Assembly: GCA_002429485.1 (NCBI GenBank)
Contig: DIZX01000002.1
Location: forward strand, 3,082 to 67,081
Source of the DNA: Patescibacteria group bacterium UBA6017
GTDB taxonomy: Bacteria; Patescibacteriota; Saccharimonadia; UBA4664
Length of the DNA: 64,000 nt
Direction of reading: 5' to 3'
The notes beneath the pieces were generated by a model, which saw only the letters and a list, made by a program, of their open reading frames with translations, did not search any database and was not told where the DNA came from. Each line of letters starts with the position of its first letter. The stretch's first letter is position 1. Below, in pieces: positions 1 through 63,972 of this stretch. The translations under genes were made by a program, and so were the position numbers.

Positions 1-1
1 G

Positions 2-850: not shown

Positions 851-950
851 GCCAGCGCCCTCGGGCCTCAAGTCCTCGTCGGTGGCGTGCAGCCGTCGTC
901 GTCACCCCTCGTCATGGAGTGGCCGGCTGCACCAACACCAAGGAGGACCG

Positions 951-1283
951 ATGTCCGAACCAAGTGGGCGCGGGTACAAGACCCTCGCCGTTCGACTGCC
1001 CGATGAGCTGCACGCACAGCTCGTCCTCATCGCCGGGCTCGGAGGGCTGTCGCTCAACGACGCCATCCGCCAAGGGGTCCAGGAACTCGTCGACCGCAGG
1101 CGCGGCGACGGAGACCTGGCCGCCCAGGCCGCCCAGGCCCTGGAAGAGATGGAACAGGAGTCTGCTATCAAACGGCAGGCCCTGCAGGCCCTGCTCGGAC
1201 CGACCGCCGTCAAGGCGACCCCGTCTGCCGAGCAGCCCACCCCGCCCCGGGGACGCTCCCGGCGCGGGGAGCCCGCGAGCTGA
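951..1283 (+). CDS. Ribbon-helix-helix (CopG/Arc-like) DNA-binding protein
   Basis: 'KTLAVRLPDELHAQLVLIAGLGGLSLNDAIRQGV' looks like an RHH fold. Start ATG at 951 is preceded by AGGAGGA at 941-947; the N-terminal extension in the track (from 882) is probably spurious. Confidence 0.5.
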   Translation: MSEPSGRGYKTLAVRLPDELHAQLVLIAGLGGLSLNDAIRQGVQELVDRRRGDGDLAAQAAQALEEMEQESAIKRQALQALLGPTAVKATPSAEQPTPPRGRSRRGEPAS

Positions 1284-1303
1284 TCGCTCGCGGGAGCTCA
1301 AAG

Positions 1304-1338
1304 CTGTGGGGAGGGCGATTCTTTCGCCCTCCCCACAG
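1304..1338 (+). terminator. Strong GC hairpin downstream of the RHH gene (13-bp stem, no clear U-run)
   Basis: 'ctgtggggagggcg-attctttc-gccctccccacag' is a perfect inverted repeat. Confidence 0.3.
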
Positions 1339-1487
1339 CACCCCACCAATGCGCGATTTCTTGGCGTAAACGACAAAGAATCGGCGCAAGATGCGGATAT
1401 TCTTTGGAAAAGAAATCGTGGAACGTGGGCAACATTTCCTTGTATAATTGGAATGATCGCGAAATTGATTGGAAATGGTTAATTGAT

Positions 1488-1901
1488 ATGGCTCGGACAA
1501 ACACTAAGACGGTAAATGAGGCTAGCGCCAAGCTCGGGGCATACCTGCAACAGCTCCGATTAGAAAGACGCTTAACGATGCGCGGACTGGCCGCCCGCGC
1601 GAAGGTCGACTTCTCCTACGTCTCGCGCCTCGAACATGGTCTCGTCGGTGCCCCCACCGCGCGCCAACTATGGAAGATTGCGCGGGCACTGGACATCGAG
1701 GTCGCTGATCTCTACTCCGAGGCGGGCTTCGTCGACGCCCACGGACTCCCCGGATTCGGACCCTACCTGCGCACCAAGTACCACCTGCCCGATGAGGCCA
1801 TCTCCCAACTGCAAGCGCACTTTGCACTTATCAACGAGAAGTATCACGCGGCCCGAAATGGCGATGCAGCGATCAGTGCTGAGGAGGCACCCGATGCTTA
1901 G
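1488..1901 (+). CDS. XRE-family helix-turn-helix transcriptional regulator
   Basis: 'LQQLRLERRLTMRGLAARAKVDFSYVSRLEHG' is an HTH_XRE pattern. The internal ATG at 1488 follows an AT-rich promoter-like stretch with TATAAT at 1443-1448. Confidence 0.6.
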   Translation: MARTNTKTVNEASAKLGAYLQQLRLERRLTMRGLAARAKVDFSYVSRLEHGLVGAPTARQLWKIARALDIEVADLYSEAGFVDAHGLPGFGPYLRTKYHLPDEAISQLQAHFALINEKYHAARNGDAAISAEEAPDA

Positions 1902-2442
1902 CACGATTACCCGGCTGCGCGACCTTGTCCCGCTACGCCGCCTATCGACACCCGAGGCGCTGCGCGTTGCGGAGGACCAGGCCAACCGGCTCTTGCACCT
2001 GTCCGGAATCACGGAGCCCCCGCTTGCCGAGGACGTCATCGCCGGAATGCCCCACATCCAAGTCGAACGTGTTGTGCCCGCCAGAGCGCTCGCCGCGACA
2101 CAGTGGTCGGACGGGCGCTGGCTGATCATCATCAACGGCGCGCTCAGCCAGGGGAGACAGCGTTGGAGCCTGGCCCACGAGGTCAAGCACATCCTCGACC
2201 ACCCATTCGTGACGATCCTCTACCCCCGGGGCTCCACGGAACGGGCCGAGCAGGCCTGCGACTACTTCGCCGCCTGTCTCCTGATGCCCCGGCGCTGGCT
2301 GCGACGAGCCTGGTCCCAGGGCACCCCCGACGTCCGGACACTCGCCCGCCTGTTCGGAGTGACACCAGCAGCTGTCACGGCCCGGCTACTACAGGTTGGC
2401 CTGATTGACCCAACATCACATCACCTCGTAAGGGAGGCCTGA
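1894..2442 (+). CDS. ImmA/IrrE-family metallopeptidase (HEXXH), partner of the XRE regulator
   Basis: 'SLAHEVKHILDHP' is an HExxH motif. ATG at 1894 follows GAGGAGG (1881-1887). It overlaps the XRE stop by 8 nt, which suggests translational coupling. Confidence 0.6.
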   Translation: MLSTITRLRDLVPLRRLSTPEALRVAEDQANRLLHLSGITEPPLAEDVIAGMPHIQVERVVPARALAATQWSDGRWLIIINGALSQGRQRWSLAHEVKHILDHPFVTILYPRGSTERAEQACDYFAACLLMPRRWLRRAWSQGTPDVRTLARLFGVTPAAVTARLLQVGLIDPTSHHLVREA

Positions 2443-2443
2443 C

Positions 2444-4207
2444 ATGAGCGAACCCGTGTATCTGCAGGAACCGGAGACAGTGCCGACGGCGACGCTCCCC
2501 CGAGCCGAGGTGGCGACCAGGCGCGCGGTGATCTACCTGCGGGTGTCGACGGCCGACCAAGCGCACGCGGACGGAGCGTCCGAGGGATACTCAATCCCCG
2601 CGCAGCGCGAGGCCTGCACGAGCAAGGCCCAGGACTTGGGCGCAGTGGTGGTGGGCGAATTCGCCGACCGTGGAGAGTCAGCCAGGTCTGCCGCCCGACC
2701 AGGGCTGCAGCAGATGTTGCGATTGTTGGCCGAGCACAAGGACGTTGACTTCGTCATCGTGCACAAGGTTGACCGACTGGCCCGCAACCGCGCCGACGAC
2801 GTACAGATCCAGATCGCGATAGAAAAGGCCCGAGCCCGGTTGATCAGCGTGACCGAGAGCGTCGACGACACCCCCTCAGGCAAGCTCGTGCACAACATCA
2901 TGGCCGACCTCGCCGAGTTCTATAGCGCCAACCTGGCCAGCGAGATCCTCAAAGGCTCCACCCAAAAGGCCAGCATGGGCGGTACCCCCTACCGCGCCCC
3001 AATCGGCTACCTGAACGTGCGCTACTTGGTCGAGGGCCGGGAGATCCGGACCATTGAGATCGACCTGGAGCGGGCCCACTTCATCCTGCGGGCCTTCGAG
3101 CTGTACGCGACGGGCGAGTACTCGCTCAAATCCCTGCACCTCCAATTAACGGCTGAGGGGCTGAGTACACGGCCAACACCCAGACAACCGGCGAAGCCGA
3201 TGGCGCTCTCGAAGTTCGCTAACCTGCTGCGCAACCGCTACTACCTGGGGGTGGTCACCTACCGAGGCGTAGAGCACCCCGGCAAGCACCCCGGGATCAT
3301 CGAGCAGGGCCTGTTCGATCGCGTGCAGCGCGTGCTGGAAGAGCGAGAGCAGCACACGATCAAGCAGCGCCGCAACCGCCACTATTTACGGGGGCTGCTG
3401 ACGTGTGCACGATGCAAGAGCCGCATGCTTTACACGACCGGCAAGGGCAAGGGCGGCGGCACTTTCGACTACTACGTCTGCAGCAAGCGCCACAAAGGGG
3501 CCGCTTGCGACCTCACCTACCTGTCAGCCGCCGACATCGAGGACCGGATCGAGCGCGCCTGGCACCTCTGGGTCCACCTGGACCGACTGGACGGCGAGAC
3601 GGTGGGACGCGATCTGGAGGCGATGGTGCTCGGCGACAAGGACCACCCGGAGCGGATCGCGCGCGCTCAGCGGCAGATCGCCCGCCTCGAATCCGAACGC
3701 CTCAAACTCGTGCAGATGGCCTACGCCGACGCCATCCCAATGAGCCTGCTGAAGACCGAACAGGAACGGATCACCATTCAGAGCCAGCAGGCCGAGCAGG
3801 AGATCACGAAAGCGCAGCCCAGCCAGGACATCATGAAGACCTACGAGCAGGCACGCGCCCTCATGAAGCGAGGGGCCGACGCCTACAGGGTCGCCGGACC
3901 CGACGCCCGTCGACTTCTCATCCGAGCCTTCTTAGCCCTGATCACGGTCGACACCGACGAGGAACACGCCACGCTGGCCAGCCCATGGCTGGAGATCCAA
4001 TCGGCCGCTGCCTCTGTACGTCAGGTGCGACCCCTCCCCCAACGCCCTGTGCGCCATGGTGGGCGCGTCGACCAGATCAGGAGGGCCTCAATGTCGAACC
4101 CCGGCCCTCTTTCTGAGGACCGGGGTTCGACTATGAATCCTTTGGTGGAGCTGAAGGGATTCGAACCCTTCACCTCTGCAATGCGAATGCAGCGCTCTAC
4201 CAAATGA
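2444..4207 (+). CDS. Large serine recombinase (resolvase catalytic domain + recombinase domain + Zn ribbon), integrase of the element
   Basis: 'AVIYLRVSTADQ' is the catalytic-Ser resolvase motif; cysteine pairs 'CARC...CSKRHKGAAC' follow. The ORF runs past the GC shift into the tRNA-Ala sequence before the first stop. Confidence 0.8.
   Translation: MSEPVYLQEPETVPTATLPRAEVATRRAVIYLRVSTADQAHADGASEGYSIPAQREACTSKAQDLGAVVVGEFADRGESARSAARPGLQQMLRLLAEHKDVDFVIVHKVDRLARNRADDVQIQIAIEKARARLISVTESVDDTPSGKLVHNIMADLAEFYSANLASEILKGSTQKASMGGTPYRAPIGYLNVRYLVEGREIRTIEIDLERAHFILRAFELYATGEYSLKSLHLQLTAEGLSTRPTPRQPAKPMALSKFANLLRNRYYLGVVTYRGVEHPGKHPGIIEQGLFDRVQRVLEEREQHTIKQRRNRHYLRGLLTCARCKSRMLYTTGKGKGGGTFDYYVCSKRHKGAACDLTYLSAADIEDRIERAWHLWVHLDRLDGETVGRDLEAMVLGDKDHPERIARAQRQIARLESERLKLVQMAYADAIPMSLLKTEQERITIQSQQAEQEITKAQPSQDIMKTYEQARALMKRGADAYRVAGPDARRLLIRAFLALITVDTDEEHATLASPWLEIQSAAASVRQVRPLPQRPVRHGGRVDQIRRASMSNPGPLSEDRGSTMNPLVELKGFEPFTSAMRMQRSTK
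4093..4131. repeat. Perfect 12-bp inverted repeat (gtcgaaccccgg / ccggggttcgac) with a 15-nt spacer at the element/tRNA junction
   Basis: Seen directly in the sequence, 12 nt from the tRNA-Ala 3' end. It resembles a tRNA T-arm fragment (GGGGTTCGA). Confidence 0.45.
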
Positions 4208-4218
4208 GCTACAGCCCC
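4143..4218 (-). tRNA. tRNA-Ala (anticodon CGC), CCA encoded
   Basis: The reverse complement reads GGGGCTGTAGCTCATTTGGTAGAGCGCTGCATTCGCATTGCAGAGGTGAAGGGTTCGAATCCCTTCAGCTCCACCA. A cloverleaf folds; G3:U70 is the Ala identity pair; the anticodon loop is TTCGCAT. Confidence 0.85.
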
Positions 4219-48980: not shown

Positions 48981-50063
48981 ATGAGTTTTCCAAAACTGAG
49001 CATATCCAGAGCTCAGCTTACGAGGTGGGTGCCATTTGGTGGCGTTGCAACGGCATTATTCGTTAGCGGATTGGCCGTGGTACTGCTATGGCCGCAAGCC
49101 AGCGTGAGCTTATCGCTAGACGGCACATTGCCGCCAAAATTGCAGTCTGAATACGGCCGCACGGTGAAACTGCTTCACGATTTTCAGGCACGCCAAAACG
49201 ACCTGCATTCGGAAGTGGTATCCCAGGGTGAGATAAATAGACAACTGTCCCTGATTTCGCTTGATGCTCAGAGCGGTCACTTCGTGGCGGCCCGTAATGA
49301 TATTCGGTCACTAAGGCAGGCGGTGGCCAACTGGAACCTGGAGCTCAGCAGCGGACCGAAGGCAGCGGCAACGTTGGCCAGCGCCCCAATATCAGCGGCG
49401 GCGCTAGGCGGCTTACACCTGCCGATTTTGCTATACCACTATCCCCCGCCCGATTTTGAGGCTCAGCTCGTGCACCTGGAGCAGGCCGGCTACACGGTGA
49501 TCGACCTCGATCAGGCATTGGCGGGACTACGCGGCGAAGCCTTACCGGCCAAACCGGTAGTTATAACTTTCGACGATGGGTTTTCGGCCCAGATGTCGGC
49601 CTTTGAGGCTTTGAAGCGCCACAATATGAAAGCTACGTTCTACATCATCTATGGCGGTGAGGCGAGCAAGTGGTGTATTGGAGCGGGCCGCCGCTACGGC
49701 GATCCGCTGCAGCCGCCAAACGGCTGCGGTGATGGCTATCTCAACTGGGATCAGGTGAAAATGCTCGACCGCAGCGGTCTAATCACCATAGCCGGCCACA
49801 CCATTAATCACCGTAATCTGGTCTCACTGTCCGAGACCGACCAGCGCTTCGAGATCGAAGTGGGTAAAGAAATGCTCGAAGGCGAGCTGGGCCACAGCGT
49901 GCGGCACTTTGCTTACCCCTACGGCCAATTCAATGCTACGACCATCAAAATCGTCCAAGAGGCGGGCTACCTCACGGCAACGACGACAATTCCCGGCGTT
50001 GACCAACCGGCGGGATCAGCTTTCACGCTGCGGCGTGTGCGCAACACGTTTCAGCTCCCCTAG
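48981..50063 (+). CDS. Polysaccharide deacetylase (NodB-homology) with N-terminal TM
   Basis: 'VITFDDG', 'ATFYII', 'GHTINH', 'FAYPYG'. Confidence 0.7.
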   Translation: MSFPKLSISRAQLTRWVPFGGVATALFVSGLAVVLLWPQASVSLSLDGTLPPKLQSEYGRTVKLLHDFQARQNDLHSEVVSQGEINRQLSLISLDAQSGHFVAARNDIRSLRQAVANWNLELSSGPKAAATLASAPISAAALGGLHLPILLYHYPPPDFEAQLVHLEQAGYTVIDLDQALAGLRGEALPAKPVVITFDDGFSAQMSAFEALKRHNMKATFYIIYGGEASKWCIGAGRRYGDPLQPPNGCGDGYLNWDQVKMLDRSGLITIAGHTINHRNLVSLSETDQRFEIEVGKEMLEGELGHSVRHFAYPYGQFNATTIKIVQEAGYLTATTTIPGVDQPAGSAFTLRRVRNTFQLP

Positions 50064-50560
50064 GTAGTAGGCAGGCCTAGCTTTTCACTAATAATGTTGA
50101 GAACTTCGCGGGGAGTTAGCTCGGCCTTCACGAGATACTCGGCGCCATAGGAATGAGCCGTATTGCGGTCGGACAATTCGGATGAATTAGTGAGCACAAT
50201 CACGGGCATCTGGGCGAAATCAAAACCGTCATTCTGGAGCGCAGAGAGCACTTCGAGGCCGGAGAGCTCGGGCATGTTAATATCGAGCACCGCCAGATTG
50301 GGGTGTTCGGACTTTACGGCTTCAAAGGCGTCGCGGCCGTTGTTTTTCAGGACAACGCGGAAGCCGGCACTCTCCAGCTTGATCTGGTACATACGTGAAA
50401 TAAACGGATCGTCTTCGGCAATCAGAATAGTTTTGATGTCGGGATCAACAGCAGCGACTGGGGCTGCCGGTGCTGCGGCTGGGGCTGCTGGAGTTGCGGC
50501 TGCGGCCGGGGCTGCAGATTCGGCAACCGGGGCGGGGGCATTATTTGTGGGACTTGGCAT
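50060..50560 (-). CDS. Stand-alone response-regulator receiver (CheY-like) with Ala/Pro-rich N-terminal tail
   Basis: 'ILIAEDD', 'LAVLDINMP', 'PVIVLTN', 'YLVK'. It overlaps the upstream HK gene by 20 nt. Confidence 0.7.
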   Translation of the reverse strand: MPSPTNNAPAPVAESAAPAAAATPAAPAAAPAAPVAAVDPDIKTILIAEDDPFISRMYQIKLESAGFRVVLKNNGRDAFEAVKSEHPNLAVLDINMPELSGLEVLSALQNDGFDFAQMPVIVLTNSSELSDRNTAHSYGAEYLVKAELTPREVLNIISEKLGLPTT

Positions 50561-52724
50561 GGGCGACCTCGCGTATTGGTGTTACTGGCTTAAACGGTAG
50601 CTCGAAACCAAAGGTCGAACCTTTACCCTCGACGCTATTGAATATGATTGTACCACCCTGATCCTCTACTACCCGTTTTGCCAGATACAGACCAAGCCCG
50701 GTACCGTCGGGACGAACAATCTGAGCGTTGTCAGCGCGGAAAAATTTGGTAAAGAGTTTTTTCTTGGCTTTATCGGGCACACCAATGCCGCTGTCGCGAA
50801 CCTCGAGCCGAACCCTATCGCCGGACTGCTCAAGGACCACCCTCACTTCGCCCGTTTGAGTGTAATAAATGGCGTTATCGATAAAGTTCATTACCACCTG
50901 GCGGGTTTTGTTGTCGTCAATTTCGGCTGGCGGCAAAATTTCGGTTGGGCGGTCAAAAATAAGCTGAATATTCTTGGCAGAGGCATGGGTGGCTAGCTGA
51001 CGAACTTCGTCGGCAACCAAGCCTACCATGTCGGTCGGCTTGGTCTGGATCAGGAAACGCCCCGCCGACAGGCGCGACACATTAAGAAGGTCGGAAATAA
51101 GGTTGACCATCCGCTCCGACGAGCCATAGGCAAATTCGGCGAACTCTTTTTGGGTGGGAGTAAGCTGGCCGGAGTCACCCTCGAGCATCATCGACAGATA
51201 CCCCTTGATGGTAGTGAGAGGTGTGCGCAACTGGTGTGAGGCCATCGAGATAAACTCATCCTTGGCTTTATCGAGCTCCTTAAGGTGGTGGTTGGCCACG
51301 CGCAAGCGATTGGTGGCGTGATCGATGCGCGCCTGCAGAGTGAGGTTAAACTCTTCGATCTGGGCATACGCTTTGGCGTTCAAGATGGCGACGGCGAGCT
51401 GCTTGCCGATGATCTCGAGCAAGTCTAAATCTTGATTCGAATATATATCGCCGGAAAGCTTGTCTCCGAGCAGCAAATACCCCACGAACTCCTCGCGCGT
51501 CTTGAGGGTGAGTGAGACCCGAATACCGTGCTCTTCCATCAGTTGCTTGCGCTGGCCGCCTTCGAGCTCATCGGCCACAATCATCGGTGACTTAAGGGTG
51601 CTGAGCTCCGGAGCTACCATTAGCCGCTTAGGCAGCTCACCGTAGTGTTCCACCCGATACACGCGCTCGTTGTTGAAGATAACGAGTTGGCCAAACTCGA
51701 TATTAAGGCTTTCGCAAAGGGCAGTAATGGTGCGCTTAAGAATTCGGTCCAAGTCTCGTTCGGATACAAGAATTTTGGAGAAGTTGTTTAATACTACTTG
51801 GGAATCATAGAGATGCCGATAAAAGATATGGTCAGTAATGTTCTGGAAAAACCGCTTAAGCGGGTGGAACGTGAACGCCAGGACCATAGCAAGCATCGTG
51901 TAGATAGCAACTTGGTTGAACGAAGTTGAGGTTCCCGGCAGAAGAACAGAGACGATCCAAAATCCCGTGGCTGCATAAATACCCTCGAAAGTCAGTAGCA
52001 GGAGTAGGTAGGTAATGGTACGCGCAACAAAGAATCGGATATCGAATAGCCGCTGAGTGACAACCGCATAGGCCACGCTGCCAGTAAAGAACAGAGTGTA
52101 GGCGGCACCATACGGCAGCAGCCAATTGATCTGGAAAAAAGCCACCAGCACAAAATTCGTGATGAATATCAATCCAAAGGTAATGCTCAGCCCGAATATG
52201 ACGTACTTAAACTGTTGGCGTTCAAGATTCTTGGATTTACGATATTGCCTTACCAGGGTGCTCCCCGCAAGTCCAAGCAGCAGTACGGTTTGGGCCAGAA
52301 ACACTACTATCCCCGGGCCGGGTATGGCGCTTACGCTTCCTGTAGCACTCATCTCGAGGTGAGTGAAGACGTATGGCGTTAGAGTCAGAGCCATCACGAA
52401 TGCCGTTAACATAATAGCGGGTAATATAAACCTGTCCTTGGGTGGGTGAGCGCGGGGAAACGACCTAAACGTCAGGAAAGCGGCTAAATTCAAGAAGGCG
52501 GCCGTAAACAGTACAATCCGAACCAATACCAGTTGGTTCTCGAGCGAGGAGTGTACCGACAGATAGTTGGCGCCGCTCCAAGCACAAAAGGCTAGGGCAA
52601 GAATTAAAAAGCGGCTGTTGGTAGCGCTTTTCGGGTTCTTCAAGTACACCAACAATCCAAGAAGGACATTGGCAAGCAGAGCAAAGACTAGGATAATGAT
52701 CTCAAGCATAGTCTCTATTAGCAT
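50541..52724 (-). CDS. Sensor histidine kinase (N-terminal 7TM domain, GAF-like region, HisKA, HATPase_c)
   Basis: 'MASHQLRTPLTTIKGY' is an H-box; 'DNAIYYT' is an N-box; 'GTGLGLYLAKRVV' is a G2-box. Confidence 0.8.
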   Translation of the reverse strand: MLIETMLEIIILVFALLANVLLGLLVYLKNPKSATNSRFLILALAFCAWSGANYLSVHSSLENQLVLVRIVLFTAAFLNLAAFLTFRSFPRAHPPKDRFILPAIMLTAFVMALTLTPYVFTHLEMSATGSVSAIPGPGIVVFLAQTVLLLGLAGSTLVRQYRKSKNLERQQFKYVIFGLSITFGLIFITNFVLVAFFQINWLLPYGAAYTLFFTGSVAYAVVTQRLFDIRFFVARTITYLLLLLTFEGIYAATGFWIVSVLLPGTSTSFNQVAIYTMLAMVLAFTFHPLKRFFQNITDHIFYRHLYDSQVVLNNFSKILVSERDLDRILKRTITALCESLNIEFGQLVIFNNERVYRVEHYGELPKRLMVAPELSTLKSPMIVADELEGGQRKQLMEEHGIRVSLTLKTREEFVGYLLLGDKLSGDIYSNQDLDLLEIIGKQLAVAILNAKAYAQIEEFNLTLQARIDHATNRLRVANHHLKELDKAKDEFISMASHQLRTPLTTIKGYLSMMLEGDSGQLTPTQKEFAEFAYGSSERMVNLISDLLNVSRLSAGRFLIQTKPTDMVGLVADEVRQLATHASAKNIQLIFDRPTEILPPAEIDDNKTRQVVMNFIDNAIYYTQTGEVRVVLEQSGDRVRLEVRDSGIGVPDKAKKKLFTKFFRADNAQIVRPDGTGLGLYLAKRVVEDQGGTIIFNSVEGKGSTFGFELPFKPVTPIREVAHAKSHK

Positions 52725-52752
52725 AACTACTTTGAGAGGAAAACACCAACTC

Positions 52753-53763
52753 GTGACAAACTATTCGGCCTGGGACGTGTCTAGCCAAGACTTTCCAATA
52801 AAAGGAGCTATCGAAAAGCAGATCGAGTTTTTGTGCCGCTACGCCATATTGGCGCCATCAGTACACAACGTTCAACCGTGGAGATTCGAGATCGACAACA
52901 GCACCTTGCGAGTATTTCTGGCAAAAGAACGCACGCTCGAAGCGGGAGACCCTACCGGCCGGGAGGGTTGGCTAAGTATCGGAGCGGCTATAGAGAATTT
53001 GCTCGTGGCGGCAAAATATTTTGGCCTAAGCGCCGCAGAGATACGGCGCAATGCCCATAGTGTGGAGTATGCATTCACTCCCGGCCAGGCCGATCTACAT
53101 CTCGAACCACTTATGCAGGCGATGGTTAACCGCGCCAGTAACCGCGAGCCATACTCCTCCACCCCGGTAGCGCGTGAGACACTCGATGAGATAGCAGGAA
53201 ATCAGGATGAGGGCGTTCAGGTCGTAGCTTCGAGCGACCGTAAATTAATCGAGCTGATTGCTAACCTCACTGGCCGAGCCATCGCAATTGCGCTAGGCAA
53301 TCCCTCATTTCGTGACGAACTGAGCTCCCTCGTACGCTCAAGTTGGACAAAAAAATCTACCGGCATGCCGGGATTCGGATTGGCAGTGTCGGGGGCCCGT
53401 TCGCTTATAGAGAATAAACTCATTCGGAGCGGTGCAACCGCTGATGCTCAGGGGAAGAAAGAACACGATGTGTTGATCCACAGCGGGGCTGTGGTGCTGG
53501 TATTTGCAGATGGCGACACACAGCCATACTGGATCAATGCCGGACGGGCCTATCAGCGCGCCGCGCTGGTGGCAACGGCTCATAGCCTAGATACCGCAAC
53601 TATGGCTGCCACCGTTGAAGCCGCAGACTTTCATCTTGATGTTGAGCGATATTGCGATACTGGCGGACGGCTGCTAGCCGTGATGCGCATCGGACACTCC
53701 GGCAAGCCCGCGCGGCATTCGCCCCGATTGGCTGCGCACGAAGTAGTTACATTTTCTTCATAG
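52753..53763 (+). CDS. Tandem nitroreductase-fold protein (Acg-family NAD(P)H nitroreductase-like); start uncertain (ATG 52696, TTG 52732 or GTG 52753)
   Basis: 'HNVQPWRFEI' and two nitroreductase-like halves. Upstream in-frame codons overlap the divergent HK start. Confidence 0.55.
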   Translation: MTNYSAWDVSSQDFPIKGAIEKQIEFLCRYAILAPSVHNVQPWRFEIDNSTLRVFLAKERTLEAGDPTGREGWLSIGAAIENLLVAAKYFGLSAAEIRRNAHSVEYAFTPGQADLHLEPLMQAMVNRASNREPYSSTPVARETLDEIAGNQDEGVQVVASSDRKLIELIANLTGRAIAIALGNPSFRDELSSLVRSSWTKKSTGMPGFGLAVSGARSLIENKLIRSGATADAQGKKEHDVLIHSGAVVLVFADGDTQPYWINAGRAYQRAALVATAHSLDTATMAATVEAADFHLDVERYCDTGGRLLAVMRIGHSGKPARHSPRLAAHEVVTFSS

Positions 53764-54997
53764 CTCGGTCGAGAATCCGAGAGTGCTGGCGGTGACGGAG
53801 CTTGTGTTTGATACCCACGCGTCCTTCGATAAGTGTGCTCTCGAGCGAAACGATAGTACGCCCAGATTTGAGCGGCTCGGACAAAGCAAGTTGCCGGACC
53901 GCAAATGCCACTACAGCCCCAGCAATCATGGCGGTGCCTCCGAGTTGAGGTTGAGTGGGCAGGGTGGATCCAACTTTTAAAAGTGATTTCTGCATATCAA
54001 GCGGAACATTTTTGGTGCCAATGATAGCGGTGGCGTATTTGAGCCACTCGCGCTGAGACATATCTTTGCGGCTGAGGATTTCTTCTATGTTGCCGACCAG
54101 CCCGTGAAACAGCGGTAGATTTGGGTTGAGATCGTAACGCTCAACGTCGAGCATAACGTCATCCCCGAGATCGGTGGCCATAATAACGGGTATACGGCGC
54201 TCGCGGGCGGCCACCCGAAGTCGGATCTTAACCTCTAGGTCGTCAATTTCATCTATCAGGACGTCGGTCGGCCAGGGATGGTCGAGAAAATCGGGCAGGG
54301 TATCTGGCTTGACGGGGGCATGGAGCTGCTCGAGCTGAATATACGGGTTCATTTCGTAGAGTTGGCGGGCAACCACGCGGGCTTTTTCTTCACCTACACT
54401 CGCCACTCCGGTACGAATGCGGTTAAGATTTGAGCCGCTGATGACGGCGCCGTCGGCAATTTTCATCCGACTCGAGCCACCCTGCAAGATCAAAGCCACG
54501 GCCGCACTGCTGCCGACGCTCATCCCGAAGCAAGCCGCGTTGATAGCGGCGTACTGAGTTTGTTGTGCCGCGGTGATGAGGTCTTTGTTTCGCACAGTCC
54601 TCAACGCCGTAAATAGCTGCTCTTCGAGAATGTGAACAAGTTGACCATTCCATGGGTAATATACCCAACTGCCCTTGCGCCAGGCCGGCACCCCGGCATA
54701 GTGCTGGTCGAGCATTTCAGCGATAGAGTGCTGCTTAATGTCTGGGCTGGCGCGGTAGAGATGGGCGTTTTCGCTGATGAACAGCTCGGCAAGCTGTTCA
54801 TCATAATTATCGATTACCTTGGTGATGCTGGCACCTTCGAGAATCTTCTCAAGACGCAGCTCGCCAGCGGCATCGTCGAGGCTTACTACTACCGGCGCAT
54901 CGGCCGAGTCGTGCAAAGTCGCCCGGGAAGCGGCCGCCTGAAGGTATTCCGGCCAGGTGCCAGAATAGTCGGTCTTAGAGAGGTTTAAGTGTCCCAT
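53747..54997 (-). CDS. E1-like ThiF/MoeB/HesA-family adenylyltransferase with ~110-aa N- and C-terminal extensions
   Basis: 'ACFGMSVGSSAAVALILQGGSSRMKIADGAVISGSNLNRI' is a ThiF Rossmann/nucleotide motif. The start overlaps the upstream gene stop (TAATG). Confidence 0.65.
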   Translation of the reverse strand: MGHLNLSKTDYSGTWPEYLQAAASRATLHDSADAPVVVSLDDAAGELRLEKILEGASITKVIDNYDEQLAELFISENAHLYRASPDIKQHSIAEMLDQHYAGVPAWRKGSWVYYPWNGQLVHILEEQLFTALRTVRNKDLITAAQQTQYAAINAACFGMSVGSSAAVALILQGGSSRMKIADGAVISGSNLNRIRTGVASVGEEKARVVARQLYEMNPYIQLEQLHAPVKPDTLPDFLDHPWPTDVLIDEIDDLEVKIRLRVAARERRIPVIMATDLGDDVMLDVERYDLNPNLPLFHGLVGNIEEILSRKDMSQREWLKYATAIIGTKNVPLDMQKSLLKVGSTLPTQPQLGGTAMIAGAVVAFAVRQLALSEPLKSGRTIVSLESTLIEGRVGIKHKLRHRQHSRILDRAMKKM

Positions 54998-56469
54998 TAG
55001 CGCTTAACCCAACGGTGCTTTACGCCCTTAGCAAAATGTTCCTGATCGCCGAATTCGATCAGGTTTACCACCGGTTCGGCCTTATCCTTAACTGCGCTGT
55101 AAAGCTTACGAAATTCGCCGTTTAATTTGGTTAGTTTTGTGATGAGGGTACGGCTGGCGATGGCCTTGTACTCAGCCTCTGGGCGAATACCCCTGGCTAG
55201 TTCTATGTTGATCTCAATATACTGATCCATATCGGACTTATTGTTAGTGGCCATGGTGAATTTACCCGTAACCCAGCCGCGCATTTTGGGGTCCACCAGA
55301 GCAGCTTTAATGTTTTCGGGGTAGATATTGACGGCGTAAATAGTGGCGGTGAAGTCTTTGCGCCCGTTCAGGTAGACAAACGGCAAATGCCACGGCTTAG
55401 TGTCTATACCGTGTTGGGCTATCCCCTGTGCAAAAGCGGGTCCGGCCATGGCTACGGCTTCGTCATAAGGGAGAATACCCCCGAGATCATGGATATTGTA
55501 GCGCAACAAGGGAATACCCGCGTAGGCGGAAAACACCATCTCGCCGCCAACTGACTCGAAATAACGGCTCATCGGGTCGTACTGCATTAGAGACGGCAGG
55601 ACTTCGGTTCCGAAATATTTTTGACTGACGGCTGGACGTCGATTGAGTATACGCCGAAGTAATATCGAAACCGGGGTTTCGTGTCCAAGCATAGCGGCAT
55701 CGGCACTGCCATATATATTTATGCCGCCGCGGTAAGGATCGCGAGAGCCGACTTGACGCAGCATGTAGTCCCGCCACTCTTCACTGAAGGCTTCACCTGC
55801 CCACATAAATTTCACGTTAAGGCGGTTCCACCGAATGCCCTGGTTGCGGCCCTCATCCAGAATATCTTTGGTGAACGGCGGATATCCGGCAATAATCACC
55901 TGCTCATACTGGCTGCCGAGGTGCTTAATAGCTTTAACGGCTTCTTCTTTTTCCATTCCGGGAGTGACGAGGTTTATCTTGAGACCATGTTCGATGGCAC
56001 CAAGTGTACTCGAGGTGGTGTACGACCCGGCGATCCATGTACCCATCGAGAAGCAGACAACAACGAGCGTGGATTTGTGGTCGGCATTGAATATTTCGCG
56101 GTAAATGCGGGCGTGGAGCACAGCGCCTTCGACGTCTTGTCCCAAACTACGAGGCCAGAAAAAGGGTGCCCCCGTTGAACCGGAGCTAACTGAAATAATT
56201 CGGGAATGATCCAGCGTGCCGTCCCAGCAGAGCTCTGCGAGCGGGTATTTGGTGAGGTAATTTTTTTTGTCGACAAGCGGAAGCTGCTTGAAATCAGCAA
56301 TAGTTTTCACAGACTTCGGGTTGACGCCGGCCTGCTTCAAGAAATCTTTGTAGGCGGGGACTCTCACGGCGGCTTCACTAAAAAGTTTCAGCACCGATCG
56401 ATCGGCGGGAAGTGGATCAGAAGCGACAACATTTCCCGTACGGAATAGGGTGTTTGTGATTATCTTCAT
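54997..56469 (-). CDS. Adenylate-forming enzyme of the PaaK / coenzyme F390 synthetase / CapK family
   Basis: 'SSGSTGAPFFWP' resembles the PaaK 'SGTTGKP' AMP-binding motif; 490 aa; operonic with the E1-like gene. Confidence 0.55.
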   Translation of the reverse strand: MKIITNTLFRTGNVVASDPLPADRSVLKLFSEAAVRVPAYKDFLKQAGVNPKSVKTIADFKQLPLVDKKNYLTKYPLAELCWDGTLDHSRIISVSSGSTGAPFFWPRSLGQDVEGAVLHARIYREIFNADHKSTLVVVCFSMGTWIAGSYTTSSTLGAIEHGLKINLVTPGMEKEEAVKAIKHLGSQYEQVIIAGYPPFTKDILDEGRNQGIRWNRLNVKFMWAGEAFSEEWRDYMLRQVGSRDPYRGGINIYGSADAAMLGHETPVSILLRRILNRRPAVSQKYFGTEVLPSLMQYDPMSRYFESVGGEMVFSAYAGIPLLRYNIHDLGGILPYDEAVAMAGPAFAQGIAQHGIDTKPWHLPFVYLNGRKDFTATIYAVNIYPENIKAALVDPKMRGWVTGKFTMATNNKSDMDQYIEINIELARGIRPEAEYKAIASRTLITKLTKLNGEFRKLYSAVKDKAEPVVNLIEFGDQEHFAKGVKHRWVKR

Positions 56470-56500
56470 TGTTCCTGTAAGCTACTATATAAGATATAGC

Positions 56501-57607
56501 ATGAAATCAATCATTGCACATAGAGCGCAGTCGTTTACGAGCTCAGAAATAATGGGCTTTTTTGCCAAAGCCAAGGGACTGGCAAACCCGATCGATCTAA
56601 GCATCGGCATCCCATACGGCGAGATGACGTCGGCTGGACGCGACGCAGCTGTGAAGGCTCTCCATGAGGGCAAGACTACCTATTCGCCAGCCGGAGGAAT
56701 GGTAGATTTGCGCGCGGTAGTGGCGAAAAAGCTACAGGAAAGAAACAATATTCCCGCGTTGACTGATACTACGATTATTACGGCCGGTGTAAGTGCCGGC
56801 CTATTTTTGGCAATGGCGGCTATTCTCGATCCTGGCGATGAAATCATAATCCCCGACCCATTTTTCTTGGCTTACCGCGAACTGGCGGTGTTGCTGGATG
56901 TGAAGCCGGTATTTCTTGATACCTACCCGTCATTTAATCTCGATGTTAGCCGGCTAGAGAAATTGATCTCGCCGCGCACTAAGGCCGTATTGATTAACTC
57001 GCCCAACAATCCGGCGGGCACGGTATACGAGCGCGCAACGCTAGAGGCGTTAGCTGAAGTCTGCAAGAAAAATGATCTGGTTGTGATTTCTGATGAGGTG
57101 TATGAGGATTTCGTGTTTTCGGGCGAGCACACGAGCATAGGATCGATATATCAGCCGACGATAACACTCAACGGGTTCTCGAAAAATCATGCGATGACCG
57201 GAATGCGGATCGGCTACGCTCACAGCACGCCGGAAATCATTAAAGCCATGACCGATCTCGAGCAGTTCGTGTTTTTCTCAAATTCTTCGGTGGCCGAACA
57301 CGCAGCAATGGCCGTACTCAGTGTGTCGACCGAGGCTACGATGCAGCATTATGCCAAGAATCGTGAGTACATTTTCGAGAACCTTGATCCAGCATATGAA
57401 CGCTCGGAAAGTGCAGGGTCATTCTTCTGCTTCATAAAACACCCGACACTCAACGGGCGAGAAGTGGCCGAGAAAGCCCTTGCCCAGCAACTAGTCGTGA
57501 TACCCGGTGATTTGTTTTCGCTTAGAACAAGCCATTTTCGCATTTCCTATGCAACGGATTTAATAACATTGACGGCCGGCATAAATATTTTGAACGCACT
57601 CATATAG
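56501..57607 (+). CDS. PLP-dependent aminotransferase, class I/II (AspC family)
   Basis: 'NSPNNPAG', 'NGFSKNHAMTGMRIGY' (PLP-Lys). It is divergent from the PaaK-like gene with a 31-bp gap. Confidence 0.8.
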   Translation: MKSIIAHRAQSFTSSEIMGFFAKAKGLANPIDLSIGIPYGEMTSAGRDAAVKALHEGKTTYSPAGGMVDLRAVVAKKLQERNNIPALTDTTIITAGVSAGLFLAMAAILDPGDEIIIPDPFFLAYRELAVLLDVKPVFLDTYPSFNLDVSRLEKLISPRTKAVLINSPNNPAGTVYERATLEALAEVCKKNDLVVISDEVYEDFVFSGEHTSIGSIYQPTITLNGFSKNHAMTGMRIGYAHSTPEIIKAMTDLEQFVFFSNSSVAEHAAMAVLSVSTEATMQHYAKNREYIFENLDPAYERSESAGSFFCFIKHPTLNGREVAEKALAQQLVVIPGDLFSLRTSHFRISYATDLITLTAGINILNALI

Positions 57608-57640
57608 TCATAATCGCTAGTAACTTGTATAATATTAAGC

Positions 57641-58051
57641 ATGAGCACTATCAAGACTAAAGTCGCAATCATCGAAGATGATATTGCGATTGTACAAATG
57701 TACCGGACCAAGTTTGAGACCGAAGGCTATGATGTATCGACGGCGCCGGATGGCGTGAGTGGCCTGGAATTGATCGAATCATTTGAGCCAGACATCGTGT
57801 TACTGGATCTGATGATGCCGAATATGAACGGCCTCGACATGCTATCTCGGTTGCGAAGCCAACCCAACGGGCGTGATGCCAAAGTGGTTGTGCTTACTAA
57901 CATGGGCGACACCGAGACTGCCACTAAGGTCTTCAAAATGGCCGCCGACGACTACATCGTGAAGGCCGAAATGACACCGAAGCAGGTAGCCGAGCGCGTG
58001 AAGACGTTGTTGGATAAAACACCGACTCCTCCGAGCGGCCCGACCTCCTAG
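57641..58051 (+). CDS. Stand-alone response-regulator receiver (CheY-like), paralog of 50060-50560
   Basis: 'VAIIEDD', 'IVLLDLMMP', 'KVVVLTN', 'YIVKAEMTPKQV'. TATAAT at 57626-57631 is just upstream of the ATG. Confidence 0.75.
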   Translation: MSTIKTKVAIIEDDIAIVQMYRTKFETEGYDVSTAPDGVSGLELIESFEPDIVLLDLMMPNMNGLDMLSRLRSQPNGRDAKVVVLTNMGDTETATKVFKMAADDYIVKAEMTPKQVAERVKTLLDKTPTPPSGPTS

Positions 58052-61884: not shown

Positions 61885-63135
61885 TTATTGGACAGAGGCT
61901 TCTTCGGCTCCCAGAGCGGCGGATGCGCAAATGGTGCACTCGTTTTCTTGACGGGAGTCTTGCAGCCAAACGCGAACCGCTTGCGACCAGCGCTCGATAT
62001 CGGCATAGCCCGCGAGATCAGCCAAGCGGCGCAGAATATAGCCAATGAAACCGTAGACATGATAGCCGCGCCATTCAGCTACGGCCCAGTACTCCCCCAC
62101 TGGGAATACACTCACCGGGGCGACCGGACGGTAGGCGGGACGATCGCGGCCCGAGCGAGAACGCACGATATCGCCGGCCACATAATCGGCATCGCGAACA
62201 GCGGTCTGGGCCAGGCCCGAGTACGGCGTGGAGGCGTTGTCTCCGATGACGTAAACGTGGTCGCCGGCCTCCAGATGACTCGACACCATGACCCGTCCAC
62301 CCTTAGCCAGCTGGAAGTGCGTACCGTTGGCGTAGTAAAACGGATTGACGCTAGTACCGGCAGTCCAAACAACGGTGCGAGTGGCGATCGACTGACCCTC
62401 CAGCTCAAGGGCTGCGGCGGTTTCGGCCTTCACCTGGGCGCCCGTGATCACCTTGACCCCTAGCGACTCGAGCTTGCGCTGCACGCGGGCCGAAACGGCT
62501 TCGCTAGAGCGCGGAAGCAATCGCGGAGCAGCCTCAACGAGCTCTATCTGATAGTCGCGCCCCCCAATGTTATGCTGCGCCATGGTGCGGTTGAGGTAAG
62601 CGCCGAGCGATGCAGCCAGTTCGACACCGGTCGGGCCACCACCGACTACGACGTAGTTGAGATCAGGCTTATGTTCGGACATTAGCTGACTGTGAATATG
62701 CAGCTTAAATTCCTCGGCGTCTTCAATCGACTTGATGCCGTACGAGAACTCTTTGAGCCCGGCGATACCAAAATAATTGGTAACGGCACCGAGAGCCATC
62801 ACCAGCTCGTCGTAATGATAGCTGGTAACGCCATCGATGGAGGTGACGGTGTGAGCCTGAGGATCGATAGCCACAATGACGTCCTTAATGAGCTTCACCC
62901 GGGTGCCATCGAGTACATCGGTGAGCGGCAGAGCCGATTCCGAGCGCGAGCCGCCGGTGGCGGAATGGTAAAACTGAGGGTAGTAAGCGAAGGTACTAAG
63001 GTTCGAAATGAGGGTAATATCGAAATCAGAATGACGGCTAAGCTGGCTAGCGGCGCGAACGCCGCCGAAGCCACCGCCGATGATTAAGACTGTTGGAATT
63101 GTGCGGGGTATAGTTGCCATATCTGGTGTAATCAT
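61885..63135 (-). CDS. ndh: Type II NADH dehydrogenase (NDH-2, FAD-dependent pyridine nucleotide-disulfide oxidoreductase)
   Basis: Two dinucleotide folds: 'VLIIGGGFGG' and 'VVVGGGPTGVELA'. Confidence 0.8.
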   Translation of the reverse strand: MITPDMATIPRTIPTVLIIGGGFGGVRAASQLSRHSDFDITLISNLSTFAYYPQFYHSATGGSRSESALPLTDVLDGTRVKLIKDVIVAIDPQAHTVTSIDGVTSYHYDELVMALGAVTNYFGIAGLKEFSYGIKSIEDAEEFKLHIHSQLMSEHKPDLNYVVVGGGPTGVELAASLGAYLNRTMAQHNIGGRDYQIELVEAAPRLLPRSSEAVSARVQRKLESLGVKVITGAQVKAETAAALELEGQSIATRTVVWTAGTSVNPFYYANGTHFQLAKGGRVMVSSHLEAGDHVYVIGDNASTPYSGLAQTAVRDADYVAGDIVRSRSGRDRPAYRPVAPVSVFPVGEYWAVAEWRGYHVYGFIGYILRRLADLAGYADIERWSQAVRVWLQDSRQENECTICASAALGAEEASVQ

Positions 63136-63192
63136 AAGTGTGATTGGCTAAAACGTCTATGATTCAGATGAATATCCGAAATACGGCCGTGA

Positions 63193-63972
63193 TTACGGCA
63201 GGACAGTATTTAATGAAATCACCAGACACAGTCCGGTAATGACGACCAGAGAATATTTAAACATTTGTTTTGCCCATAGAGTGTCGTTGGCGGCCGCAAA
63301 GCCGCTCAGGCCGAGGGCCAGCCAGACTAGCCCGAGCATGAGGGTAACCACCAGATAGGCCACGCCGGCATAGCCAAGCAGGTATAACGAAGCCGCTGCC
63401 ACCGTGAACGCAACAATGTAGGCCAGCATTTGAATTTTGGTGGCGCGTATCCCCTGCTTGCTCGGCAGCACCGGTATGTTGGCGGCCGTGTAATCACTGA
63501 GCCGATAGATGGCAATAGCGTAGAAATGCGGCATCTGCCATAAAACGATGATTAGGAATAATATCCCTGCCGCTACATCGAGCCGGCCCGTTACCGCCAC
63601 ATAGCCGACTACCGGCGGTACGGCGCCGGAGATACTACCGACTACCGTGCCAATCGCCGAGCGCCGCTTCCAGATCCCGTACAGCACGACGTAGGCAAAG
63701 AAGCCGAAGAGCGAAATGGCCAGAGTGAGCAGATTGGTAAAGACGCCGAGTATCGCCGCCCCCGCAACGCCAAGAATGCTGCCAAAAATAATCGCAGCGC
63801 GAACCGAAATTGCCCCCCGAACGAGAGCCCGCTGGTTGGTGCGTGCCATCTTGGCGTCGATTTCACGATCGATGTAATTATTGAAGACGCAGGCGGAAGC
63901 GATCACCAATGACAGCCCGGTAAGCATAGCAATACCGAGGTTGAAATGGATTTGTCCTTTTGATGCCAGCAA
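63193..63972 (-). CDS. UbiA-family prenyltransferase (heme O synthase/CtaB-like or polyprenyltransferase); the N-terminus may extend beyond the window
   Basis: 'NNYIDREIDAKMARTNQRALVRG' is the UbiA Asp-rich motif; multiple TM helices. Confidence 0.65.
   Translation of the reverse strand: MLASKGQIHFNLGIAMLTGLSLVIASACVFNNYIDREIDAKMARTNQRALVRGAISVRAAIIFGSILGVAGAAILGVFTNLLTLAISLFGFFAYVVLYGIWKRRSAIGTVVGSISGAVPPVVGYVAVTGRLDVAAGILFLIIVLWQMPHFYAIAIYRLSDYTAANIPVLPSKQGIRATKIQMLAYIVAFTVAAASLYLLGYAGVAYLVVTLMLGLVWLALGLSGFAAANDTLWAKQMFKYSLVVITGLCLVISLNTVLP

Follow-up and report, generated by a model that had tools for sequence, protein, structure and literature searches.

We examined a 64,000-nucleotide stretch of DNA (hereafter the window) from Patescibacteria group bacterium UBA6017 (contig DIZX01000002.1, positions 3,082 to 67,081), and in particular a block of seven tightly packed genes at 50060-58051 of the window, which an initial annotation made from the sequence alone had described as an unusual enzyme cluster bracketed by two-component genes. 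Open reading frames (ORFs) together with domain searches confirmed all seven genes and their coordinates. On the reverse strand lie REC1, a stand-alone receiver of 166 amino acids (aa) (50060-50560; Pfam Response_reg, 1.1e-20), and a seven-transmembrane (7TM) histidine kinase (50541-52724) with HisKA_7TM, HisKA and HATPase_c domains and a sub-threshold GAF-like region. These are followed on the forward strand by an Acg-type double nitroreductase of 336 aa (52753-53763), and again on the reverse strand by a ThiF-like cyclase of 416 aa (53747-54997) and a PaaK-like adenylating enzyme of 490 aa (54997-56469). A class I/II pyridoxal phosphate-dependent aminotransferase (56501-57607; Aminotran_1_2, 1.3e-57) and REC2, a second stand-alone receiver of 136 aa (57641-58051; Response_reg, 3.7e-25), complete the block on the forward strand.

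Upon examining the gene boundaries, we found intergenic gaps of 9-33 bp, with a total intergenic space of about 100 bp in the locus. The kinase stop overlaps the REC1 start by 20 bp, the PaaK-like stop and the ThiF-like start are joined in the sequence TAATG, and the nitroreductase and ThiF-like genes converge with a 17 bp overlap; both the TAATG coupling and the convergence had been proposed before and are real. The divergent gap between the kinase and the nitroreductase is 28 bp, and that between the PaaK-like gene and the aminotransferase is 31 bp, as first described, given ATG 56501 as the start, whereas the Joint Genome Institute (JGI) gene call places the aminotransferase start 51 bp further in. 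The JGI call also places the kinase start at 52709, 15 bp further in, and the real start of the nitroreductase is the GTG at 52753, with GAGAGG upstream. Since the intergenic space amounts to so little, all short ORFs fall inside large genes: a small-ORF search placed every ORF of at least 20 aa within them and found no free-standing small ORF in the locus, which agrees with the earlier remark that no precursor or carrier ORF is present. The absence of YcaO, also remarked upon earlier, extends to 10 kb on either side of the locus, and within this distance all called genes are Pfam-assigned, with the PaaK-like gene as the sole exception. A promoter and terminator scan of the locus returned counts at chance level. 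Close homologues of the locus proteins come from Candidatus Saccharimonadales metagenome-assembled genomes (MAGs).

The arrangement recurs in many relatives. With the PaaK-like protein as seed, 185,579 species genomes yielded 415 relatives, of which 80 loci were kept, 18 of them with a ThiF-like gene. In each of these 18 genome loci the 7TM kinase has a full-length homologue (30-84% identical along its entire length) within about 2 kb of the PaaK-like and ThiF-like genes, and 13 of them have a receiver. When four further loci (L165-L168) and two loci with gene fusions (L169/L170) are included, every one of the 24 PaaK+ThiF loci examined has the kinase beside the enzymes, so that the two-component genes belong to the cluster, as had been supposed. 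These loci derive from Saccharibacteria, Nealson-, Berkel-, Roizman- and Andersenbacteria and other Patescibacteria, and also from MAGs labelled Gammaproteobacteria, Pseudomonadales and Verrucomicrobiia (labels as given); additionally, a 929-kb Saccharibacteria scaffold and Chromulinivoraceae, reached by look-ups seeded with the ThiF-like protein, show this layout too. The kinase is inside a single co-directional operon with the enzymes in L026, L047 and L169, and in L047 this is a seven-gene string of lyase, PaaK-like, ThiF, nitroreductase, methyltransferase, kinase and receiver. The arrangement is far beyond chance, and the genes form one conserved functional unit that includes the kinase. 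It is extremely improbable that unrelated housekeeping genes merely happen to be neighbours in a compact genome: although small Patescibacteria genomes are densely packed and the FolD-REC2 synteny holds whatever lies between REC2 and the kinase, the PaaK-ThiF-(nitroreductase)-kinase core recurs in all PaaK+ThiF loci examined and is kept across many lineages despite only 30-45% protein identity, start and stop codons overlap, and fusions of the genes exist. In two loci labelled Gammaproteobacteria (L009, 613-2069; L020, 8550-9759), an MmyB-like helix-turn-helix (HTH) regulator (HTH_31 + MLTR_LBD) and a GreA/GreB-like protein lie just upstream of the PaaK-like gene, and the former may regulate transcription of the cassette in these lineages.

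Next, we consider the ThiF-like protein, which matches the N-terminal half (profile positions 8-341 of 722) of the NCBIfam Rv1355c family model at 4.7e-87, whereas the ThiF, MoeB and TcdA models reach only about 1e-11 or worse, and ThiF, MoeB, SAMP-E1 and TcdA score 18-45 bits, far under their cutoffs. Over 298 aa it shares 38% identity (E 5e-58) with the cyclase half of a plasmid-borne Rv1355c-family protein of Rhodococcus qingshengii found by tblastn, and it has in common with the family the motifs W.YYPW..LVH, RT.RN..IT..EQ, LDVERYDL...PLFHG, WPQLG and SGR. In alignments with actinobacterial and Patescibacteria members, the residues for ATP binding and adenylation, G158, G162, D182, N190, R193, K205 and D252, are invariant, D252 being matched to TrzS D217 and ThiF D127 by motif, without direct alignment to the M. 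smegmatis protein. Among 1.84 billion representatives searched, 863 sequences reach an E-value of 1e-30 or better; 51 of the 150 nearest representatives are ThiF-oxidase fusions at least 650 aa long, with many of 700-780 aa that match the Rv1355c model, and two examples (P0244 and P0261) align along the whole of this model and score on or near it. The AlphaFold2 (AF2) model of the protein (predicted local distance difference test, pLDDT, of 83; E1 core) matched the common E1 core alone in the PDB, with no preference for the MccB/PaaA clamps, and for AclA, the top structural match, nothing was found in the literature. Judged from its sequence, the ThiF-like protein is the split counterpart of the N-terminal half of Rv1355c-family fusions, and its N- and C-terminal extensions, previously likened to those of peptide-clamp E1 enzymes such as MccB and PaaA, align instead as family-specific parts of the Rv1355c/TrzS cyclases.

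The enzymes of this family have a known chemistry. A ThiF-nitroreductase protein of Pseudoalteromonas rubra, OxzB, is described as an "oxazolone synthetase" (10.1101/2020.06.11.147165; review PMC12596934), M. tuberculosis has the split version in TyzB and TyzC (PMC10404671), and TrzS, which is Rv1355c, cyclises and then desaturates N-acyl tryptophan (PMC12856293); all three have been shown experimentally to be oxazolone synthetases acting on N-acyl Trp, Tyr or Phe (PMC12856293, PMC10404671, 10.1101/2020.06.11.147165). Given that these are described small-molecule oxazolone synthetases, the core pair of cyclase and oxidase belongs to a described pathway, and the earlier statement that the combination was not one falls for this pair; it stands for the PaaK-like partner and the kinase linkage, as we found in the searchable literature no account of the cluster in Patescibacteria, of a PaaK-type partner or of a histidine-kinase linkage.

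The pair of an E1 enzyme and a nitroreductase-like dehydrogenase had prompted an analogy with the maturation of thiazole/oxazole-modified microcins (TOMMs). In its favour are the E1 fold with its extensions and the service of nitroreductase-fold flavin oxidases as azoline dehydrogenases in TOMM pathways. We consider peptide or protein modification very improbable here, whether as TOMM/microcin-like maturation of a ribosomally synthesised and post-translationally modified peptide (RiPP) or as E1 activation of a ubiquitin-like or sulfur-carrier protein. The contrast between 4.7e-87 on the Rv1355c model and about 1e-11 or worse on the ThiF, MoeB and SAMP-E1 models argues against it, as do the extensions, which align with the TrzS family and not with the clamps. 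Furthermore, there is no YcaO within 10 kb, the sole gene there without a Pfam domain being the PaaK-like one, the gaps of at most 33 bp offer no space for a precursor or carrier ORF, and neither a small ORF nor a beta-grasp gene cluster is conserved among the 18 loci.

The double nitroreductase passes the cutoff of the NCBIfam Acg family model (2.8e-59, 201.2 bits, cutoff 199) and also matches the C-terminal half of the Rv1355c model (positions 374-651 of 722; 5.8e-26, 90.9 bits). Its nearest PDB entry is MsAcg (2ymv), and the authors of the TrzS study report the same nearest structure for the TrzS oxidase domain (PMC12856293). The APSxHNxQPW and RxxxR motifs of the flavin mononucleotide site are conserved, and the gene adjoins ThiF in 12 of the 18 genome loci. 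The ThiF-like protein and the nitroreductase appear as the two halves of the Rv1355c/TrzS-type ThiF-flavin oxidase fusions, in a Rosetta-stone relationship, and the nitroreductase is predicted to be a flavin-dependent oxidase that serves as desaturase partner of the ThiF cyclase. TrzS-type ThiF genes without an adjacent flavin oxidase were seen on Streptomyces/Kitasatospora linear plasmids (L082, 6983-8757; L084, 6293-9177). One of them is followed by a GNAT gene and the other by a ketoacyl-acyl carrier protein (ACP) synthase III gene, the latter ThiF gene having an N-terminal extension of about 230 aa that is acyl amino acid synthase-like by eye, with an E.SRL motif; both may be further pathway variants without an oxidase.

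The PaaK-like protein has no Pfam match, and its match to the PaaK model TIGR02155 (2e-14; 53 bits against an equivalog cutoff of 646.3) is weak, as is that to FlxY. Its AF2 model (pLDDT 86.8) finds PaaK1/PaaK2, BT_0428 and HCL (2-hydroxyisobutyryl-CoA ligase) as best PDB matches (E 1e-22 to 1e-15), with 17-19% identity in the structural alignments, and the ANL motifs SSGSTG, YGSAD, RYxxxD and GRxD as well as the C-terminal catalytic K484 are invariant across 18 homologues. The predicted structure identifies the 490-aa protein as a distant PaaK-fold ANL adenylate-forming enzyme, and the initial assignment to PaaK-type adenylases is borne out by fold and motifs, even though Pfam is silent and the equivalog cutoff is far off. 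The fold and the ANL core motifs are those of the phenylacetate-CoA ligase PaaK, and the nearest solved structures use aryl-acid substrates; unlike PaaK, the protein is about 50 aa longer and has no paa catabolic operon within 10 kb. Homologues that stand alone (40-46% identical to the window protein; loci L011-L081) occur, for example, in Methylococcus capsulatus (L054), Xenococcus PCC 7305 (Xenococcaceae; L056) and Manganitrophus (Nitrospirota; L032), and also in Chthonomonadaceae. Their neighbours are beta-lactamase-like, PP-loop, DUF1350, ABC, DUF1345 and FAD oxidoreductase genes and one REC-GGDEF gene.

All described oxazolone pathways begin with an N-acyltransferase that resembles FeeM and acyl-homoserine lactone (AHL) synthases, namely OxzA, TyzA or TrzA. 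Pfam assignments of the genes within 10 kb, with no search using the reference OxzA, TyzA or TrzA sequences, include no acyltransferase of this type, and the 18 related loci have no conserved cluster of acyltransferase neighbours. The PaaK-like enzyme is predicted to be an aryl-acid activating ligase in place of the usual N-acyltransferase.

Indications of its substrate come from the gene upstream of it, which varies between relatives while its theme, aromatic amino acids, is constant. In the window this slot holds the aminotransferase, which scores below all NCBIfam equivalog cutoffs and whose predicted reaction is the interconversion of an aromatic amino acid with the corresponding arylpyruvate; the same divergent pairing with the PaaK-like gene is found in L002, L006, L014, L041, L137 and L142. 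The slot is taken by an aromatic amino acid ammonia-lyase in L004, L007, L046, L047 and L167/L168, with the flexirubin tyrosine ammonia-lyase FlxA or phenylalanine ammonia-lyase as best models (616 and 609 bits on FlxA for L004 and L007, under the equivalog cutoff), by a prephenate dehydrogenase in L003, and by a Glu/Leu/Phe/Val-type (ELFV) dehydrogenase in L009. Additionally, two natural fusions fix the functional link of the slot enzymes to PaaK-like and ThiF. P0289 (1242 aa; L169, 8001-11729) joins a ScyB-like tryptophan-type dehydrogenase, a PaaK-like and a ThiF-like protein, and in its locus the order is nitroreductase, P0289 fusion, alpha/beta hydrolase and HisKA_7TM kinase, co-directional and with gaps of 2-22 bp. 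P0257 (924 aa) joins a ThiF-like protein to an ammonia-lyase/aminomutase of the 4-methylideneimidazole-5-one (MIO) type that passes the tyrosine 2,3-aminomutase cutoff. The aromatic-amino-acid slot and these fusions lead us to infer that the acid activated by the PaaK-like enzyme is an aromatic C3 compound of aromatic amino acid origin, an arylpyruvate or else an aryl-acrylate.

Turning to the two-component genes, the kinase is above the Pfam cutoffs for HisKA_7TM (8.4e-10; 39.3 bits, cutoff 28.6), HisKA (1e-18) and HATPase_c (2.7e-25), and its H-box histidine H497 is invariant across 14 homologues. Of its first description as a 7TM-GAF kinase, the 7TM part is secure and the GAF part is weak, since the GAF-like region at aa 322-449 reaches 20.5 bits against a cutoff of 22.4. 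A covalently attached chromophore like that of photoactive yellow protein (PYP) was considered and dropped, as no Cys is conserved in the 14 aligned kinases. REC1 and REC2 are paralogous but, at 38% identity over 116 aa, not the near-identical pair they had been taken for; REC1 begins with an Ala/Pro-rich low-complexity tail of about 40 residues (residues 1-41; window 50438-50560) that REC2 does not have. Both are receiver-only, and the locus contains no DNA-binding output domain. REC1 is probably the cognate response regulator of the kinase, and L002, L009, L035 and L047 likewise have a receiver immediately after the kinase gene. In most Saccharibacteria loci the cassette is flanked by the FolD-REC2 pair, which also flanks kinases with other cassettes.

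Upon building a neighbour-joining tree of the kinase sensor domains (n=81), we observed that 19 of 21 cassette-linked kinases fall in two adjacent clades, with one well-covered exception, and that kinases with other upstream genes cluster apart, in a tree without bootstrap support in which taxonomy is a partial confounder. The kinase could instead sense an external cue and merely control, or be co-regulated with, the enzyme genes, which would be the signal-regulated production first proposed for the cluster; we consider this unlikely. Such a role would suit a kinase family that is widespread and mostly not beside these enzymes, and promoter-like sites, no more frequent than expected by chance, do precede the nitroreductase and REC2 genes. 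However, the flanking regulators have no DNA-binding domain, and the locus therefore provides no direct transcriptional control of the enzymes; moreover, L026, L047 and L169 place the kinase in the same co-directional operon as the enzymes, and the sensor domains co-cluster with the cassette.

Related HisKA_7TM kinases without the PaaK/ThiF cassette were also observed to be immediately preceded, on the same strand, by other enzyme genes. Different ThiF-family proteins were confirmed in this position in L103 (6213-6998) and L129 (5012-6942), and the gene in L096 (5703-6968) encodes an alpha-oxoamine synthase, best matched as glycine C-acetyltransferase, which may be housekeeping. Five other proteins upstream of related kinases have no Pfam or NCBIfam match, and further kinase loci with other cassettes are L098 (6189-7004), L113 (6093-6980), L091 and L124. 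On Saccharibacteria-like contigs the frame FolD, receiver, variable cassette and kinase recurs, which suggests a swappable cassette before a conserved sensor.

Overall, we consider it probable, by a modest measure, that the genes of the locus specify a small-molecule pathway with a split oxazolone-synthetase pair at its core and a two-component sensor of its own coupled to it, and that its product would be an aromatic-acid-derived N-acyl amino acid or an oxazolone-type small molecule. The pathway would run on putative substrates as follows. The aminotransferase would turn an aromatic amino acid into an arylpyruvate, an aryl C3 acid that in relatives would be made by the tyrosine/phenylalanine ammonia-lyase, the prephenate dehydrogenase or the Phe/Trp-type dehydrogenase. 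The PaaK-like enzyme would adenylate this acid and join it to an amino acid, or alternatively make a coenzyme A (CoA) thioester for that step, and would so supply the N-acyl amino acid that the cyclase requires. The ThiF-like protein would then adenylate the amino-acid carboxylate, upon which the amide oxygen would close the ring to a putative 5(4H)-oxazolone, and the Acg-type flavin oxidase would desaturate the C-alpha/C-beta bond to give a conjugated, electrophilic oxazolone. The 7TM kinase with REC1 (and REC2) would act as a dedicated sensory partner, the kinase most likely as a receptor whose putative ligand is the product or an intermediate; since both regulators are receiver-only, the output would probably be protein-protein rather than transcriptional. 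That the kinase is the receptor for the pathway product itself is a tentative suggestion made by analogy. The initial proposal of a novel small-molecule, peptide or signalling system is thereby upheld, in more specific form, for small-molecule chemistry and signalling, and not for peptide modification.

Several observations weigh against this interpretation. The oxidase is its weakest link, because the protein is nearer to the Acg model (201 bits) than to the C-terminal half of Rv1355c (91 bits), with only 22-28% identity to the fused oxidase domains, and because no nitroreductase stands beside ThiF in 6 of the 18 loci; in addition, the Acg-like FDO-B enzymes of M. tuberculosis, as opposed to the FDO-A subgroup, which makes oxazolones, are believed not to produce them (PMC10404671). 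That a PaaK-fold enzyme forms the amide directly is an assumption, and members of the PaaK-like family are also found by themselves, in changing surroundings and, outside Patescibacteria, with no conserved partner (Methylococcaceae, cyanobacteria, Pseudonocardiaceae and others). The well-covered locus L142 consists of aminotransferase, PaaK-like and kinase genes without ThiF, and the constant pair may therefore be the PaaK-like enzyme and the kinase, with the cyclase and the oxidase as elaborating enzymes. With regard to the kinase, it has no conserved Cys or other obvious ligand-attachment residue, and of 80 loci of its family returned from metagenomes with the sensor half as seed, about 70 have no PaaK/ThiF neighbour and about 9 have PaaK or ThiF.

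Some of the same points bear on a rival with the same enzymes and a different product, to which we give a smaller but appreciable chance. There, the kinase linkage would be kept, the ThiF-like protein would activate another carboxylate, for example that of the PaaK product or of a derivative of a beta-amino or alpha-keto acid, the outcome would be a lactam, a lactone, a thioacid or another heterocycle, and an unrelated redox step would fall to the flavoprotein. The absence of the usual N-acyltransferase, an oxidase closer to the Acg model than to oxazolone-type fused domains and dispensable in a third of loci, and the hint of beta-tyrosine chemistry in P0257, which passes the tyrosine 2,3-aminomutase cutoff, are all consistent with it. 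What favours the oxazolone is that the ThiF-like protein is a clear member of the TrzS/OxzB/TyzB family and has every one of its motifs, that all characterised members make oxazolones from N-acyl aromatic amino acids (PMC12856293, PMC10404671), and that the aromatic-amino-acid theme fits.

When set beside known systems, the locus has in common with TrzA/TrzS (Rv1356c/Rv1355c) of M. tuberculosis, M. smegmatis and Rhodococcus the cyclase family, the pairing with an Acg-like flavin oxidase and the aromatic amino acid theme (PMC12856293). Both also have signalling genes as neighbours: trzAS lies near cyclic di-GMP (c-di-GMP) genes in M. tuberculosis (PMC12856293) and a GGDEF gene lies beside the Rhodococcus plasmid copy (locus L083), as the histidine kinase does in the window. 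In contrast to TrzA/TrzS, the cyclase and oxidase of the window are separate convergent genes rather than fused, a PaaK-fold adenylating enzyme is coupled to the cyclase where TrzA-type acyl-CoA N-acyltransferase would be expected, the oxidase is no more than a distant relative of the fused domain, the host belongs to Patescibacteria, and a HisKA_7TM kinase is the invariable neighbour. TyzB and TyzC, from the TyzA/TyzB/TyzC system (Rv2336-Rv2338c; PMC10404671), show that cyclase and oxidase can be separate proteins, as in the window, and the Tyz and Oxz chemistry, in which an N-acyl aromatic amino acid is cyclised and then desaturated, is that proposed here. However, these systems use a FeeM/AHL-synthase-like acyltransferase with fatty acyl-CoA, which the locus lacks, their cyclases fall in a sequence subcluster other than that of TrzS (PMC12856293), and no sensor kinase linkage has been reported for them. 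By its gene content, the locus has the cyclase and flavin oxidase of the Oxz/Tyz/Trz systems and is without their acyltransferase, and for this reason we class it as a variant, not a member, of the oxazolone synthetase systems.

Further likenesses concern the supply of the aryl acid and the sensing of the product. In flexirubin synthesis, FlxA and FlxY combine a tyrosine ammonia-lyase (TAL) and an ANL ligase, the ligase activating the aryl acid that the lyase releases, and the L004 and L007 lyases and the weak FlxY match of the PaaK-like protein recall this pair. PYP chromophore synthesis likewise pairs TAL with p-coumarate ligase. In contrast to both, the scores here are below the equivalog cutoffs, there are no polyketide or PYP genes, and the slot in the window holds an aminotransferase, not a lyase. 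CqsA/CqsS, LqsA/LqsS and LuxM/LuxN are pairs of an autoinducer synthase and a polytopic membrane histidine kinase. As in these, the enzyme genes of the window lie directly beside a multi-pass kinase without a large extracytoplasmic domain, and a small, labile, lipophilic product would be expected; the synthases, however, are unrelated in sequence, the downstream regulators in the window are receiver-only, and ligand sensing by the kinase is putative.

Patescibacteria have reduced genomes with few biosynthetic genes and live attached to host bacteria, often Actinomycetota. Actinomycetota, mostly mycolic-acid producers, account for more than half of the TrzS sequence subcluster (PMC12856293), and the locus would extend the oxazolone-type pathway to Patescibacteria. 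Such a pathway could apparently receive its substrate from an ATP-dependent PaaK-fold ligase rather than from an acyl-CoA N-acyltransferase, and would draw on deamination products of aromatic amino acids. Oxazolone natural products were discovered in 2020-2025; according to those who characterised them, their physiological role is a major unresolved question, with signalling put forward as no more than a conjecture (PMC12856293; 10.1101/2020.06.11.147165). The locus gives this conjecture a concrete, testable form, as a cyclase/oxidase pair is tied across lineages to one kinase family and receivers. We put forward as a speculative idea, possible rather than probable, that Patescibacteria signal by a self-made aromatic-derived oxazolone or its N-acyl amino acid precursor, which the HisKA_7TM kinase would read and receiver-only regulators would relay. 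If true, this would be a synthase-receptor communication system not recognised before in ultra-small episymbiotic bacteria and would provide the first receptor for the oxazolone class. In an extended form of the idea, the kinase family would carry interchangeable upstream "signal-synthase" cassettes, with PaaK/ThiF here and ThiF-like or unknown enzymes in L103, L129, L098 and L113.

Finally, other parts of the window and its contig show features of their own. Positions 1-4218 form a high-GC segment (65-66% against about 55% in the remainder), which contains a DNA methyltransferase-like protein (32-850), an ImmA/IrrE-like HExxH protein (1636-2442) and a large serine recombinase of 587 aa (2444-4207), whose ORF runs into an opposite-strand tRNA-Ala(CGC) at 4143-4218; this segment looks like the edge of a mobile element or prophage integrated at the tRNA gene. 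Towards the other end, at 61885-63972 and past the right end of the window (locus L001, 1-4585), lie an NDH-2-type Pyr_redox_2 gene and a UbiA-family gene, the latter heme O synthase-like as judged by its position beside COX genes. The contig also encodes the cytochrome c oxidase subunits COX1, COX3 and COX4_pro, and together with the NDH-2-type and heme O synthase-like genes these constitute aerobic respiratory equipment in a Saccharimonadales-like genome.

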